A DNA stretch of 4,318 bases from a virus. Its lineage: Duplodnaviria; Heunggongvirae; Uroviricota; Caudoviricetes. The translations under genes and the position numbers were made by a program. Below the pieces are notes generated by a model that saw nothing but the letters and a program-made list of their open reading frames with translations, was not told the origin of the DNA and searched no databases. Each line of letters starts with the position of its first letter. The stretch's first letter is position 1. The stretch lies in IMG/VR virus record IMGVR_UViG_2671180906_000008; one strand, 5' to 3'. Below are positions 121 through 4,318 of the stretch, piece by piece.

Positions 121-383
121 CGCTAGCAAGCTAGCCACCAGCCTAAGGCAAGACAGCCTCTGGTCAGCCTGTGTGTTCTTTGGTCTCGTGACTTAAGTCT
201 ATCACCACACACGCTCGGACATGCTGTCGAACCTTCATCTCTATGGTCATCGCAGACCACTAACCCCAATTACCTCAAGTCATTCTGTTTGCGTCCTGTT
301 GCCTGCTGGTCTCCCTTTACGTGGGGGCTTGAGTAGGTCAGTGGGGTGCGACTTCAGGGTGCAAACAAAAGGAGTACACGTAA

Positions 384-1130
384 ATGTCCCAACAAGAAAT
401 CAGCATCATTAACCTCGACCAGCTTGTGTCCATGACCTCAGTTGAAATTGCTGAGCTGACAGGAAAAGAACATAAACACGTTTTACGAGATATTCGTAAT
501 ATGGTCGAAGAGCTTAACGGGGCCAAAACTGAGCACTGCTCAACTTTGAGCAGCGAGCTTAACGGGTCCAAATTTGGGCTCGTTGGCGAGGAAGTATACA
601 AGGACGCGAAAGGTGAGAGCCGAACAATGTATCGTCTCGACCGTAAGCATACTTTCATTCTGGTCGCTGGCTATTCCGTTCACCTCCGCGCCAAGTGTTA
701 CGACCATATTCAGACGTTAGAGCGTCGAGTCCTTCAACTGGAAGACCAGAAGAAGCGAGCAGCCATTCAGTCCGCTAACCGCCGAGGCGTGACTTGGGGC
801 GACTACTGCAAAACCTATGGTCTGCCCGCTCAGAAGCTAATGACCGCACTTCTCCAGCATCGTGGCCTCTTTCGTAAGAACCCAATCAGTAACGAGTGGT
901 CTGTAAATCCGAAGTATTCCGACTGCTTTCGTATCATTAAGCCGTCAGACCAGAAGTTCTCAGCAGGTGGGTATAACTTCCGGTTCAACGCTAAGGGGCT
1001 GGAGGTCTTCGGTAAGCCTGAGATGGTTGACAAGATGCGAGGCATCCTTATTGCATTCACTGGCACCGACCAGCAGAAGCAAGAGCACCTCCTGAAGCTG
1101 GCACAATCCGGTAAGGTGGAGGGAATCTAA
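384..1130 (+). CDS. Rha-family phage regulatory protein (pRha/ORF6N-like N-terminal domain), 248 aa
   Basis: ATG 384 preceded by AAGGAG (369-374) at 9-nt spacing. N-terminal ...TSVEIAELTGKEHKHVLRDIRNM... then ...MYRLDRKHTFILVAGYSVHLRAKCYDHI... matches the Rha/antirepressor N-domain pattern as I recall it. Long uninterrupted ORF. Family call not searched. Confidence 0.65.
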   Translation: MSQQEISIINLDQLVSMTSVEIAELTGKEHKHVLRDIRNMVEELNGAKTEHCSTLSSELNGSKFGLVGEEVYKDAKGESRTMYRLDRKHTFILVAGYSVHLRAKCYDHIQTLERRVLQLEDQKKRAAIQSANRRGVTWGDYCKTYGLPAQKLMTALLQHRGLFRKNPISNEWSVNPKYSDCFRIIKPSDQKFSAGGYNFRFNAKGLEVFGKPEMVDKMRGILIAFTGTDQQKQEHLLKLAQSGKVEGI

Positions 1131-1131
1131 G

Positions 1132-1308
1132 ATGATGATTGACCCGCGCACACCTGAGGGGCGCATGACTCTCCGTTACCGTGGCTACCGGACTGAAGTC
1201 CTCCTCAGAGAGCTTGGTCTAGACCCGGAAGATGAGACCCGCCAGCACCAATCCCGAGACGAGCTAATAGCCCAACTGGTCGCTATGAAACTGCCGCTTA
1301 ACCGTTAG
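1132..1308 (+). CDS. Hypothetical small protein, 58 aa, translationally coupled to upstream gene; not in supplied ORF track
   Basis: ATG 1132 lies 1 nt after the TAA (1128-1130) of the upstream ORF. GGAGG at 1118-1122 gives 9-nt spacing. Reads MMIDPRTPEGRMTLRYRGYRTEVLLRELGLDPEDETRQHQSRDELIAQLVAMKLPLNR to TAG 1306-1308. Codon usage like neighbours. Confidence 0.5.
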   Translation: MMIDPRTPEGRMTLRYRGYRTEVLLRELGLDPEDETRQHQSRDELIAQLVAMKLPLNR

Positions 1309-1427: not shown

Positions 1428-1978
1428 ATGATGTTCAACAACAACNNNNNNNNNNNNNNNNNNNNNNNNNNNNNNNNNNNNNNNNNNNNNNNNNNNNNNN
1501 NNNNNNNNNNNNNNNNNNNNNNNNNNNNNNNNNNNNNNNNNNNNNNNNNNNNNNNNNNNNNNNNNNNTCCTATCCGTTGTCGCTCGCTATCAAGACCCTC
1601 ATTCCGGGCTACCTGTCAGGCTTACCGTCCACCAGCCGCGAGGCGATGGAGTTACTGGAAGCTCTGGCTGAAGCTGGCGTGACCATTGGTAACTTCTTCA
1701 GTAATGACCTGATGACCGCCTACCAACGCCGCCAGATGAACAAACGAGCTGAAGCTGAGCGTATCGCTAAAGAGCTAGCGTCTCAGAAAGAGCGTACCCG
1801 CGAAATGTTCATGACCGAAGACGAATGGCAAAAAGAGCTACAGCGCCGCGAACAGGTCAAAGCTGAACGCCGGACCTATGGTGAAAACCTCCGCAGCGCT
1901 ACTCATTCCGCTGGTCGCTCACGTGCCGCTATCGTCGCTGACCTTGAGTCAGGCGGTAACTGGATGGACAGCTTGTAA
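1428..1978 (+). CDS. Hypothetical protein with charged, coiled-coil-like C-terminal half; interrupted by assembly gap, reading frame across gap unknown
   Basis: GAGGAG (1414-1419) 8 nt before ATG 1428 (MMFNNN...). After the gap an open frame runs to TAA 1976-1978 (…AEAERIAKELASQKERTREMFMTEDEWQKELQRREQVKAERR…). The 1349 start in the ORF track has no ribosome-binding site and is probably an artefact of the gap. Confidence 0.5.
1446..1567. other. Assembly gap (122 N)
   Basis: Run of N characters. Length is not a multiple of 3, so it is probably a placeholder size. Confidence 0.99.
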
Positions 1979-2061: not shown

Positions 2062-3051
2062 ATGAATATGACTAAAAACGCTTTCCAGTTTGGCATTGAG
2101 CCAGTACGCATCACCGATACCGACAACATTCAGGTCAATGAAGGTCTGCCGACTAACGCCGACCCTCAGGTCTATGCCCTCCAGTTAGCTAAGACTGTTA
2201 AGGCTATGCTGAACGGTGTACTTAAAGACGCTCAAGATAACATCCCGTTCCCTGTAGAAGTCCTGCCGACCCGTAACAGCTTACCGACTCCAATCATTGC
2301 TCACACTCTGGCTGACCGCTCTGTGCTGGTCCCTGTCCGTGGTGGTAAGCGACCTGAAGTTGTGACCGCTCCGTCTGGCACTGAAATCACCGTTGAGCCG
2401 ATTGAACAGGCGATCCTCGTGTCTCACCAAACAAAGCTTTGGGACCAGAAGTCGACCACTGGTTTCACTCAGGGGACGCTCCAGCAGGACGCACTGAACA
2501 TCTGCGATAACGTGATTCGTACCATTAACTCTAAGATGGTTGACGTGCTGGAGTCCTCAAAGCTGCTGAAGACCGTAGAACTTCCGGCCCTGACTGGTAG
2601 CCTGACCGCTAAGGCTGACGCTATCATGGATGCCCTGTACGAGAACACGGAGTCTTCTTTCGGTTCTGAGGTTTCTGACTACGGCATTATCGCCCATGAG
2701 TCACACCTCAAGGCTCTCTCCCGTCTGGCTGCTAAGCAGGGCTTCGGTGGTGAAGACGCTATCGTCGATATGCTGGGGACTGACGTCGCCTATTACAACG
2801 GTGAAGACCGTGGCGTGTTCATGATGGCTAAGCGTTTTACGGCTCTGAGCTTCGGTTGCTTCCGTCACGATGGCGAGAGCATTACTGTGGTCCTTTCACG
2901 TGATGGAGACTCCCAGTCTCACGACCTTGAGATTCTCGGCAAGGTGTTTGTTGTAGCTGAAGCTGCTACGACCATCAAGATGGGTACTGGCTCGGCTACT
3001 GCTGTCCTGCCTGTAGTCAAACGCCTGAGCTTCACTAAAGAAGCTAACTAA
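2062..3051 (+). CDS. Hypothetical protein, 329 aa, likely highly expressed; possible virion structural protein by context only
   Basis: AAGGAGA (2046-2052) 10 nt before ATG 2062. Strong major-codon bias (cgt, ggt, gct, ctg, ccg, aac, ttc, tac). Hairpin plus T-tract terminator immediately downstream. No family recognised by eye. Confidence 0.8.
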   Translation: MNMTKNAFQFGIEPVRITDTDNIQVNEGLPTNADPQVYALQLAKTVKAMLNGVLKDAQDNIPFPVEVLPTRNSLPTPIIAHTLADRSVLVPVRGGKRPEVVTAPSGTEITVEPIEQAILVSHQTKLWDQKSTTGFTQGTLQQDALNICDNVIRTINSKMVDVLESSKLLKTVELPALTGSLTAKADAIMDALYENTESSFGSEVSDYGIIAHESHLKALSRLAAKQGFGGEDAIVDMLGTDVAYYNGEDRGVFMMAKRFTALSFGCFRHDGESITVVLSRDGDSQSHDLEILGKVFVVAEAATTIKMGTGSATAVLPVVKRLSFTKEAN

Positions 3052-3065
3052 CAATAACGACTATT

Positions 3066-3102
3066 GGTCAGACTTCCGAACTGGATGTCTGGCCTTTATT
3101 TT
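3066..3102 (+). terminator. Intrinsic (factor-independent) terminator downstream of the 329-aa ORF
   Basis: GGTCAGAC (3066-3073) pairs with GTCTGGCC (3087-3094) with one G.U pair; inner TCC/GGA pairs extend the stem; 5-nt loop gaact; followed by TTTATTTT (3095-3102). Starts 15 nt after the stop codon. Confidence 0.6.
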
Positions 3103-3146: not shown

Positions 3147-3221
3147 ATGGACCTACACAAAGTCTATCTCGTGGTCTTCCTGCTAAAGCTGGGACTGGTG
3201 GTCTGGCTATGGGCTATTAGA
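3147..3221 (+). CDS. Very short ORF (24 codons) behind a consensus ribosome-binding site; possibly a truncated gene start or leader peptide
   Basis: AGGAGG (3136-3141) 5 nt before ATG 3147. Reads MDLHKVYLVVFPAKAGTGGLAMGY then TAG 3219-3221. Too short to call a protein confidently. Confidence 0.2.
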
Positions 3222-3724
3222 CGATGAGTTTTGACTGAAAAATGTGAGACCTCATCTAATATAAAGAGCGAGCCAAAAGCCCCCATAGCCTGACCTGAGC
3301 CAGACCAAAAGGGCCGGGTAGTCAGACCGTGAGTTCTATTCCTTTAGAGGGAATATTACGTGCTTCAAGTCTTGACCTTCTATCTCTAAATGTGTGACTA
3401 TCACTACAACCAACTGGATTCACCTGTCTTTAAGAAACAATAGGTTAGCTGGTTGTCTTCGATTTGTCGTAGGCTCCCTTCGCCCGCTCCAATTTATCTT
3501 CACCTGATCAATCTGCCATTTTTGCTGTATCTGATTTTCTATATTATCTTAATTCAATCACTTCAGGCTTTTCGCAATCGCTGTAACACTTCCCCATTTT
3601 TTTGTAAATAAAAAGCGTTTACGCAATGCAATCCTTTTGTAACAACTCAGGTAAAATACCTTATTTTCAAGTTGTTGAATAAGTGGTTATCTACGCTTTT
3701 AACAAACGATTGATGGATTATTTT

Positions 3725-4276
3725 ATGAAAGGGAAATCTGCATTAACTCTTCTGCTCGCTGGTATATTTTCGTGCGGCACATGCCAGGCGACAGAGGCAG
3801 AAGTGACAAGCGAATCTGTATTTAACATTCTTAATTCCAGGGGGGCAGCAACAGATAAAAGTTATTTATCGTTAAATCCAGATAAGTATCCTAATTATCG
3901 TCTTCTGATTCACTCAGCCAAATTAAAAAATGAAATAAAGAGTCACTATACCAAAGACGAAACTCAAGGATTGCTAACATTAACAGAAAACACACGAAAG
4001 TTAACGTTGACGGAGAAACCCTGGGGAACGTTTATTCTTGCTTCTACTTTCGAAGATGACAAAACAGCGGCAGAAACCCACTATGATGCTGTCTGGCTGA
4101 GGGATAGTTTATGGGGCTATATGGCATTAGTATCAGACCAAGGAAATAGTGTAGCCGCAAAAAAGGTTCTGCTCACCCTGTGGGGTTATATGTCTACGCC
4201 CGACCAGATTAAGCGGATGCAGGACATCATTAGCAACCCAAAACGACTGGATGGAATTCTGATCCTACCCACGTAA
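3725..4276 (+). CDS. Secreted protein with N-terminal signal peptide and a GH15-like (glucoamylase/trehalase-type) WxRDS motif; ends at an in-frame TAA, possibly truncated or a pseudogene
   Basis: ATG 3725 gives MKGKSALTLLLAGIFSCGTCQA|TEAE, a classic n-h-c signal peptide. In-frame alternative starts at GTG 3683 and ATG 3713. AVWLRDSLWGYMAL at 4088-4129 resembles the GH15 WTRDS region. Visibly AT-richer with different codon usage than 384-3051. Frame stays open after the stop to the window end. Confidence 0.55.
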   Translation: MKGKSALTLLLAGIFSCGTCQATEAEVTSESVFNILNSRGAATDKSYLSLNPDKYPNYRLLIHSAKLKNEIKSHYTKDETQGLLTLTENTRKLTLTEKPWGTFILASTFEDDKTAAETHYDAVWLRDSLWGYMALVSDQGNSVAAKKVLLTLWGYMSTPDQIKRMQDIISNPKRLDGILILPT

Positions 4277-4318
4277 TATGGACACAGGCCTAAGCGAGGT
4301 TCTGGTTTTCAAATTGTT

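Follow-up and report, generated by a model that had tools for sequence, protein, structure and literature searches.

A Rha-Family Gene Lies in a 6.4-kb Integrative Element with K1F-Type Phage Promoters and a Predicted HK97-Fold Capsid Protein

Results

The rha Gene Belongs to an Integrative Element at glyU

The stretch of DNA analyzed here, IMG/VR record IMGVR_UViG_2671180906_000008, is a 4,318-base chromosomal fragment (hereafter, the window) that has an insertion sequence (IS) at each end and carries a gene for a Rha-family protein, rha, at bases 384 to 1130 of the plus strand. Comparison establishes the gene order along this strand: a 325-nt leader, rha, two open reading frames (ORFs) termed orf58 and orf163, an ORF for a 329-residue protein, a terminator, an ORF of 26 residues, a non-coding arm, a 16-bp repeat and the host gene ygeQ. 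Both flanks of a run of N in the window are 100% identical to the chromosomes of Escherichia coli ECMA0423 (CP178302) and Shigella flexneri SFBU1023 (CP182556), where the window sequence sits within a ~6.4-kb (plus IS911) integrase-bearing element at the tRNA gene glyU, with 16-bp direct repeats at its borders. Judged from these alignments, the window is the right-hand two thirds of this ~6.4-kb integrative element.

The earlier note on this DNA, made from the letters alone, had read bases 384–1130 as a Rha-family gene, and profile searches bear this out. The ORF is intact, running uninterrupted on the plus strand from an ATG start through 248 codons, and its product matches the Pfam domain Phage_pRha (PF09669) with an E value of 1.5e-18 and 67.5 bits (cutoff 29.9), residues 17–113 aligning to profile positions 1–90 of 91. 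It also matches PHROG 10324, “anti-repressor Ant,” over residues 15–238 (E 2.6e-62), and an orthologue that is 89% identical bears the RefSeq name “Rha family transcriptional regulator.” The match to NCBIfam TIGR02681 (phage_pRha; E 4e-7) scores 30.1 bits, under the curated cutoff of 45.95, and the C-terminal half shows only a sub-threshold resemblance to ANT/KilAC (PF03374; E 0.03, 15.1 bits, cutoff 25.3). Bro-N (PF02498) and KilA-N (PF04383), which the note had proposed to search alongside Phage_pRha, have no Pfam match in the protein. By these scores, the Rha of the window, a putative DNA-binding protein, classifies as a divergent member of the domain family and not as a member of the TIGR02681 subfamily.

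The nearest relatives of Rha among 50,697 phage genomes are 27–41% identical and come from temperate Pseudomonas, Aeromonas and Stx phages and from siphoviruses; no T7-like phage is among the best phage relatives in this set. Rha shares with the Rha/Ant-type regulators of temperate phages (PF09669; PHROG 10324) the common N-terminal domain and a similar overall length. However, it is at most 41% identical to any phage copy, and in this element, which has no recognizable repressor, it is the first gene to follow the phage-polymerase promoters. The remark in the note that Rha proteins are typical of temperate phages is beside the point for this locus: in the element family the first gene is interchangeable, with Rha among at least four alternatives (see below).

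Intact Relatives Carry Promoters Identical to Those of K1F-Like Phages

The region upstream of rha, which is disrupted by IS911 in the window, is uninterrupted in 39 complete E. coli genomes; MS 145-7 and TK3889 are further E. coli strains with an uninterrupted element. In CFSAN064035 (L001), three T7-group sites lie 5′ of rha: P1, aaacccaCACTATAGGGG; P2, gACTAAACTATCACTATAGGGGAGAG; and P3, gACTAAACTATCACTATAGGGACC, the last located 325 nt before the rha start. We took as a T7-group promoter a ~23-bp site with a CACTATAGG core, an initiating GGG and a phage-specific −17 to −8 region that matches the promoters of a known phage; in the intact element, P2 and P3 have all of these features. The promoters before the rha operon in the uninterrupted copies are identical over 20–22 nt to the consensus of phage K1F and the genus Kayfunavirus, ACTAAACTATCACTATAGGG, and for P2 and P3 the identity with K1F promoters, phi10 included, is 100% over 22 nt. 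K1F itself has ten such sites (consensus ACTAAACTATCACTATAGGRA), and the longest match between the element and a K1F promoter, 29 nt at 93%, is to the promoter before the K1F capsid gene. DNA similarity between the element and Kayfunavirus is limited to the promoters. In IMG/VR, the 15-mer ACTATCACTATAGGG occurs in many copies per genome in contigs of ~39–40 kb, and the contigs rich in it are Kayfunavirus, comprising K1F-, CR44b- and ST31-like T7-type phages of E. coli, Salmonella, Citrobacter and Enterobacter. The identity of the element promoters with those of a phage genus is thus established by comparison.

The distribution of the core motif over 48 related loci is strongly biased. In the 2.1-kb slot upstream of orf58 (100 kb in total), CACTATAGG occurs 98 times on the sense strand and never on the antisense strand, with at least one sense-strand copy in 46 of the 48 loci, compared with two sense and no antisense copies in the other 480 kb of these loci. 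The ancestral promoter site and this bias in strand and position are far beyond chance, which is excluded as their source. Many classes of the −17 to −8 region occur among the 48 loci, the K1F type being the commonest; the ACCCACACTATAGGGAGA class is close to a promoter that SRT7-like coliphages carry in many copies per genome. A fixed core combined with a varying specificity region is the pattern to be expected of promoters that track different helper polymerases.

In the source genome of the window (L090), tandem promoters, TAATACACCTCACTATAGAGG and a K1F-type site, are located at 4190–4250, upstream of IS911. The TAATACACCTCACTATAGAGG site has two mismatches from the T7 consensus between −17 and −5, and this T7-consensus-like promoter (TACACCTCACTATAG) has no multi-copy phage match in IMG/VR. 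The tandem cassette varies, with a ACCCACACTATAGGGG-type site and a K1F-type site in L001, and CCCCTCACTATAGGGG with a K1F-type site in the Citrobacter and Buttiauxella copies. Two distant relatives (L088 and L089) have repeated T7-group motifs of their own, GATTAAACCCTGACTATAGG in three copies and CTGCTCACTATAGG in three copies. A simple scan of the sense strand from the promoter through the end of the capsid gene found neither a sigma-70-like promoter nor a terminator.

IS911 Has Replaced the Upstream Half of the Proximal Promoter in the Window

The first 58 bases of the window are the right end (IRR) of an IS911 inserted into the element and are 100% identical to the IS911 annotated in Shigella phage Sf6. 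The complete copy (1.25 kb; left inverted repeat, IRL, TGAAGTGGTCAACAAAAACTGGCC) lies at L090 4806–6056. The junction reads ...gactaaactatcaCTA/IS911/CTAtagggacc, with a 3-bp target duplication; the duplicated CTA occupies window bases 59–61, and the opposite IS911 end in the source genomes adjoins ...gactaaactatcacta. The T7-like string of the window, ccacttCACTATAGGGACC, located at about 47–69 of the plus strand and hence outside rha, spans the IS911 end at base 58. It is a chimeric site with its +1 at base 64, in which −17 to −6 come from IS911 and −5 to +6 (bases 59–69) are the remnant of the K1F-type P3; the native part begins at −5. The intact counterpart in L001 is tgACTAAACTATCACTATAGGGACCatatctcg. 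The agreement of the IS911-derived bases with the consensus at −8 to −6 is fortuitous, the window site does not qualify as a T7-group promoter because −9 to −17 is IS911 sequence, and a search of the window for the K1F-type 16-mer AACTATCACTATAGGG found nothing even when three mismatches were allowed.

Positions −9 to −12 set specificity in T7-group promoters. Because these have been replaced, the proximal promoter in the window copy is, on sequence grounds, almost certainly inactive for a K1F-type enzyme. The upstream promoters of the source genome persist 1.8 kb away, beyond IS911, so that expression of the operon in this copy would either depend on read-through from them across IS911 or be lost. 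The T7-type promoter on which the note had relied is present, intact and identical to that of K1F in the relatives, whereas the site in the window itself is a chimera of IS911 and its flank in which the proximal promoter has been destroyed.

A Leader Hairpin and a Candidate Structured RNA

The 5′ leader of the operon (bases 59–383) contains no sigma-70-like promoter or terminator on the plus strand. Its 3′ part, window 279–362, folds into a long irregular hairpin just 5′ of the rha ribosome-binding site (minimum free energy −37.4 kcal/mol, z −3.0), and the last ~105 nt of the leader, which contain the hairpin, are kept even where the first gene has been swapped for an unrelated one. In shape, the hairpin is reminiscent of the RNase III sites in T7 mRNAs. 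It may act in RNase III-type processing or in translational control.

A second candidate RNA, ~350 nt long, begins at +1 of P2 (L001 11454–11813, equivalent to L090 4245–4604) and thus lies upstream of IS911, outside the window. The region is considered non-coding because the small ORF found there is not conserved; this ORF, which would specify 42 Cys-rich residues between the promoters, was ruled out as coding since neither its frame nor its length is kept. In a 14-helix model of the RNA, 93% of cells are paired, compared with 33–44% when the partners are slid by 1–3 columns, and 24 pairs have changed on both sides, compared with 2–6 in the slid controls; none of 500 shuffles reached the observed values. 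Conserved motifs include a loop, GATTGGAAACC, and a repeated GACRGGCGGRRA. Rfam gave no match in the window and, in the element, matched the tRNA only. The covariation makes the region a strong candidate for a structured RNA, not a proven one, because only about three independent lineages contribute to it.

The Constant Module Encodes a Predicted HK97-Fold Capsid Protein

Three genes, orf58, orf163 and the gene for the 329-residue protein, form the constant module of the element in all relatives. The first, orf58 (bases 1132–1308, plus strand; 58 residues), is always found 3′ of the variable first gene, with synteny kept in all relatives and two sequence types. The second, orf163 (1428–1978, plus strand), always lies directly 5′ of the capsid gene and encodes a charged, helix-rich protein of 163 residues, which these features point to as a scaffold candidate. 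It is partly masked by the N run (window 1446–1567), which has 122 N where the source genome L090 and the identical genome L093 have 63 real bases; as a result, window coordinates downstream are shifted by +59 and the frame of orf163 looks broken, although it is intact in L090 and L093, from which the full sequence was taken. Neither the orf58 nor the orf163 product has a match in Pfam, PHROG, NCBIfam, PADLOC or Protein Data Bank (PDB) sequences, or in the 50,697 phage genomes.

The 329-residue protein (2062–3051, plus strand) likewise has no sequence match in these five resources and no tblastn match in the phage genomes. Its close homologues are restricted to Enterobacterales, and an exhaustive profile search with it recovered 64 distant cluster representatives, one of which has a C-terminal Big_2 Ig domain, a frequent feature of virion proteins. 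A structure model built with 34 distant homologues from this search is confident and contains the spine helix, E-loop, and P and A domains by which the HK97 fold is recognized; an earlier input of 15 close homologues had given a pLDDT of 34.6. Comparison of the model identifies the protein as an HK97-fold capsid (shell) protein. Profile comparison of the element proteins with K1F gp10 and gp9 was negative.

The Element Has Its Own Integrase, Variable Cargo and a Wide Distribution

In L001 the uninterrupted unit begins at the 3′ end of tRNA-Gly (glyU), ends at the repeat that corresponds to window 3476 and measures 6.4 kb. It contains, in order, an integrase gene, a DUF4145 gene, P1, P2, ~530 nt of non-coding sequence, P3, rha, orf58, orf163, the gene for the 329-residue protein, the terminator, the 26-residue ORF and attR. 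The integrase is of the tyrosine type and has 543 residues. The attR core, CCCTTCGCCCGCTCCA (window 3476–3491), is a 16-bp direct repeat of the glyU 3′ end, with the second copy at the tRNA end (L001 8977; L090 1796); comparison thereby establishes the integrase and attachment (att) sites of the element. In L090, the glyU gene beside the element (1720–1812) is not recognized by ARAGORN and differs in sequence from the intact L001 tRNA-Gly, which could reflect either tRNA decay or an assembly error.

The general layout of the family consists of a tyrosine integrase, one variable cargo gene, two to four T7-group promoters, the ~350-nt RNA, another promoter, the leader hairpin and the operon. This architecture is common to ten species genomes and 58 metagenome loci. 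The integrases form two lineages that are ~31% identical and have different att repeats. The cargo in L001, the DUF4145 gene at 10751–11410, is PD-T7-4 (PADLOC E 1.3e-102), a proven anti-T7 defense gene that has since been renamed RAZR. RAZR is the commonest cargo across loci (11), followed by a 122-residue gene (6) and a 139-residue gene (4), with another gene or none in 9; the 139-residue gene, unrelated to RAZR, fills the slot in the source genome of the window. The first gene of the operon also varies: 16 loci have Rha or a variant of it, 14 an unrelated 161-residue protein, 8 a 188-residue protein and 12 a gene of unknown type. The possibility that the alternative first genes are KilA-N proteins received no support from Pfam.

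The element is present in 168 of 5,426 complete E. coli genomes (~3%), including O26, O103 and O111 enterohemorrhagic E. coli (EHEC), and in Shigella. Synteny is kept across Escherichia, Shigella, Citrobacter, Buttiauxella, Enterobacter, Kluyvera and Shimwellia, and the capsid genes are 81–100% identical across at least seven genera. The distant relatives L088 and L089 (capsid protein identity 25–29%) have the same layout; the first gene is weakly Rha-like in one and has a Bro-N domain in L089. Among metagenome contigs (L117–L174), a dozen independent ones are just one element long (6.2–6.8 kb) and stop 20–200 nt outside the att repeats, of which there are at least two sequences, TCCCTTCGCCCGCTCCA and GTAGTTCCAGATG. 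Such contigs fit either polymorphic occupancy of the site or excision, the excised forms interrupting the assembly graph at att. No circular terminal overlaps were found in the element-length contigs, whose ends consist of the att direct repeats plus short flanks. E. coli E2865 (L104) and similar O26/O103/O111 EHEC have an IS66-family insertion between orf58 and orf163, and other element copies carry IS21 or IS2.

Integrase and att sites combined with an incomplete set of virion genes are the general genomic hallmark of phage satellites, and the element has both. The note had advised a search for integrase, polymerase and packaging genes: integrase genes are indeed present in the related loci and the element has its own capsid protein, and neither RNA polymerase, terminase, portal nor replication genes were recognized with Pfam, PHROG or NCBIfam.

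Discussion

The Element as a Candidate Satellite of Virulent T7-Like Phages

The note had raised the possibility of a mosaic or a satellite that exploits a helper polymerase, and the comparative evidence supports it: an integrase-bearing element carries K1F-type promoters and encodes no RNA polymerase of its own. We consider it rather probable that the element is a helper-polymerase-dependent satellite of virulent T7-like (K1F-like) phages. In broader terms, it is likely an undescribed parasite of, or trap for, K1F-type lytic phages.

In the mechanism that we envisage, the operon, lacking a recognizable host promoter, would be silent before infection. The single-subunit RNA polymerase of an infecting Kayfunavirus (K1F-like) phage would read ACTAAACTATCACTATAGGG, so that the structured RNA and the operon would be transcribed, the latter solely by this enzyme. 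Rha, the first product, would serve as an early DNA-binding regulator of the element and would most likely turn on excision or interfere with the helper, which is the least-supported step of the scheme. The orf163 product and the capsid protein could then build small shells and, with the portal, terminase and tail of the helper, the 6.4-kb DNA would be carried at the expense of the helper. Alternatively, six copies of the element (38 kb) might fill a helper-sized head. The origins of T7 consist of promoters followed by transcribed DNA, and by analogy the tandem promoters and RNA region of the element could constitute a helper-dependent replication origin. The sense strand of the element contains nothing that mimics ATCTGTT, the pause site at the T7 concatemer junction. 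With regard to capsid size, capacities of ~4–4.5 kb for the T=3-like RcGTA head and 11–15 kb for T=4 satellite heads have been quoted (bioRxiv 10.1101/2025.06.18.659913), and the 6.4-kb element falls between the two.

Several observations weigh against the satellite interpretation. Viromes provided no evidence of excision, replication or packaging, as the IMG/VR matches are only prophage-style predictions from isolate genomes. No replication, terminase, portal, head–tail or excisionase gene was recognized with Pfam, PHROG or NCBIfam, and the element has no similarity to the K1F genome ends or to a pac region. The capsid protein is as similar to encapsulins as to phage capsid proteins. The promoter type TAATACACCTCACTATAG of the source genome has no matching phage in IMG/VR. 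The frequent IS hits (IS911, IS66, IS21 and IS2) suggest either that IS elements often target it or that decay is under way in some lineages. Finally, RAZR, which according to the available passages of the papers on it is triggered by T7/T3 portals and aborts infection, fits awkwardly with dependence on a T7-like helper.

The cargo gene leads to the strongest of the alternatives, that the element is a phage-triggered defense island. Here the promoters would be an infection sensor that switches on Rha, the RNA and a decoy capsid with scaffold, which would sequester or poison helper parts (e.g., the portal) and, together with RAZR, abort infection, and the island would move only rarely. The retrieved passages of the Nature 2026 paper on RAZR describe it as a HEPN RNase that assembles around T7/T3 portal rings and aborts infection, and an abortive-infection RNase of this kind is the commonest cargo of the element. 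The promoters would make expression strictly infection-dependent, and the lack of replication and packaging genes recognizable to Pfam, PHROG and NCBIfam, as well as of packaging evidence from IMG/VR viromes, is also what such an island would show. However, the element has its own integrase, precise att repeats and at least two att sites, and its capsid genes are 81–100% identical in at least seven genera. The integrase, att diversity and spread across genera argue for efficient horizontal transfer, and a complete, conserved capsid protein with a scaffold-like partner exceeds what a decoy would need. We therefore regard a pure defense island as unlikely, though worth serious consideration; the two interpretations are compatible, since interference with the helper is usual among satellites.

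Far less probable is a decayed temperate T7-like prophage that has retained an integrase, some promoters and a capsid gene. The co-occurrence of these three features at a tRNA site would fit, as would the IS insertions, which show that some copies have decayed. In contrast, dozens of independent loci across genera have the same compact gene set in 6.2–6.8 kb with intact ORFs; genes for an RNA polymerase, a DNA polymerase, a portal or a tail have left no trace; neither the capsid protein nor orf163 or orf58 has a sequence relative in the 50,697 phage genomes or in K1F gp10 or gp9; and the DNA resembles Kayfunavirus in nothing beyond the promoters. The constant compact gene set and the lack of other phage homology largely refute such an origin. 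That the promoter-like strings are fortuitous or non-functional and the operon an ordinary host-transcribed prophage remnant with a conventional Rha antirepressor is hardly credible, as the chimeric window site, which has no consensus match upstream of −8, is outweighed by exact 22-nt identity to a phage consensus in several copies per element, by an absolute strand and position bias (98 sense sites in the slot compared with 2 in five times more flanking DNA), by a specificity region that varies among relatives around a constant CACTATAGG core and by the lack of any sigma-70-like promoter in the scan.

Comparison with Known Satellites

Among known systems, P4-like satellites offer the closest parallel in logic. 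In P4, late promoters are activated by Ogr of the helper P2, a defense hotspot lies next to the integrase gene, and capsid assembly of the helper is interfered with. The element, too, is small, encodes an integrase and lies at a tRNA gene; its morphogenesis genes would stay silent until a helper supplies a transcription function, and it has a slot for variable defense cargo. In contrast to P4, its helper would be a virulent T7-like phage, and the switch would be the RNA polymerase of the helper acting on copied promoters instead of an activator of host polymerase. It also encodes its own capsid protein and is smaller (6.4 kb compared with ~11 kb). The P4 core genes psu, sid, delta, alpha primase and epsilon were not found in any ORF of the element with Pfam, PHROG or NCBIfam, and no cos homologue was found.

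The cf-PICIs also encode their own capsid. According to the available part of the report on them (PMC10803314), cf-PICIs such as EcCI2 are ~14 kb long, have a full head module with portal, protease, connectors and small terminase, and rely on temperate helpers for tails. In contrast, the element has a capsid protein and a possible scaffold only, and thus does not contain the head module that defines cf-PICIs. PICMI and PLE are, like the element is proposed to be, chromosomal islands activated by virulent phages, and PICMI is similarly minimal in size and has defense cargo. However, PICMI encodes AlpA, a primase and IOLG but no capsid protein, and its concatemers are packaged in capsids of the helper, whereas in the element a capsid gene is present and no AlpA or primase was detected. 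PLE differs in its length of 18 kb and its own replication and capsid-remodeling genes, and phage-polymerase promoters have been reported for neither PICMI nor PLE. VEIMEs, like PICMIs, lack capsid genes.

The “twilight-zone” mini HK97-fold genomes resemble the element in several respects: they are 5–11.6 kb long, combine an HK97-fold protein with an integrase, lack portal, terminase and tail genes, and have capsids close to encapsulins (bioRxiv 10.1101/2025.06.18.659913). They differ in that they come from an environmental survey and contain RepA/helicase genes, and Escherichia, T7-type promoters and a helper are not mentioned in that work. RAZR, in turn, is the neighboring cargo gene in many copies of the element. 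In the passages retrieved from the RAZR/PD-T7-4 papers (Vassallo 2022; Nature 2026), the gene is treated alone and the neighboring promoters, RNA and capsid operon go unmentioned; those from the original screen (Vassallo 2022) remark only that it “often overlaps an integrase gene,” and the word “integrase” is absent from the main text, as available, of the Nature 2026 paper.

T7-like phages are textbook lytic phages and common therapy candidates. To our knowledge, no satellite of these phages is known, and the full-text-searchable literature (subscription-only literature lay outside the search) describes neither such satellites nor chromosomal elements with T7-group promoters. As a tentative proposal, which may well not hold in full, the element would represent the first satellite family of virulent T7-like (Autographiviridae) coliphages, one of 6.4 kb that uses copied helper promoters of differing specificities as its induction switch and has a new ~350-nt RNA and its own miniature HK97 capsid, smaller than any characterized DNA-carrying one. 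If true, this would be a new kind of phage–host–parasite interaction in the best-studied system, present in ~3% of complete E. coli genomes, and copied helper promoters would provide a simple answer to how virulent helpers activate satellites. It would also provide a natural mobile context for RAZR, a well-studied defense gene, and a culturable example of “twilight-zone” mini HK97 capsids, together with an uncharacterized structured RNA. The importance of the locus lies in the surrounding element and not in the presence of Rha.

Right Arm of the Element and Flanking Sequences

Downstream of the capsid gene, a terminator hairpin, GGTCAGAC...GTCTGGCC followed by TTTATTTTG, is located at 3065–3102 of the plus strand; its loop size kept it off the list of the simple scanner. 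In the Buttiauxella and Enterobacter copies a stem is maintained, with both loop and stem differing in sequence. The 26-residue hydrophobic ORF, MDLHKVYLVVFLLKLGLVVWLWAIRR (3147–3227, plus strand), follows 3′ of the terminator and has a strong Shine–Dalgarno sequence. It is 86–100% conserved in E. coli and Citrobacter, is also found in the Buttiauxella copies and was detected in most other relatives; its product could be a small membrane toxin or a holin-like peptide. Outside the element, bases 3725–4259 of the plus strand are a truncated host gene, ygeQ, at the edge of the ETT2 island, as assigned from the RefSeq annotation of the homologous region, and bases 4260–4318 are the left end of IS3, the continuation of which in L090 is 99.8% identical to a sequence annotated as “IS3-like element IS3 family transposase.”

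Between the 26-residue ORF and attR, bases 3228–3475 form a conserved non-coding right arm. In an alignment of six genera-level relatives that extends from the capsid-gene stop to attR, the mean column identity is 82%. Near attR, this arm contains a promoter-like half-site, tgtgtGACTATCACTACAACC (3399–3419; GACTATCACTACAACC at about 3404–3419), without a TATAGGG start; relatives have AACCATCACTGTAACC.

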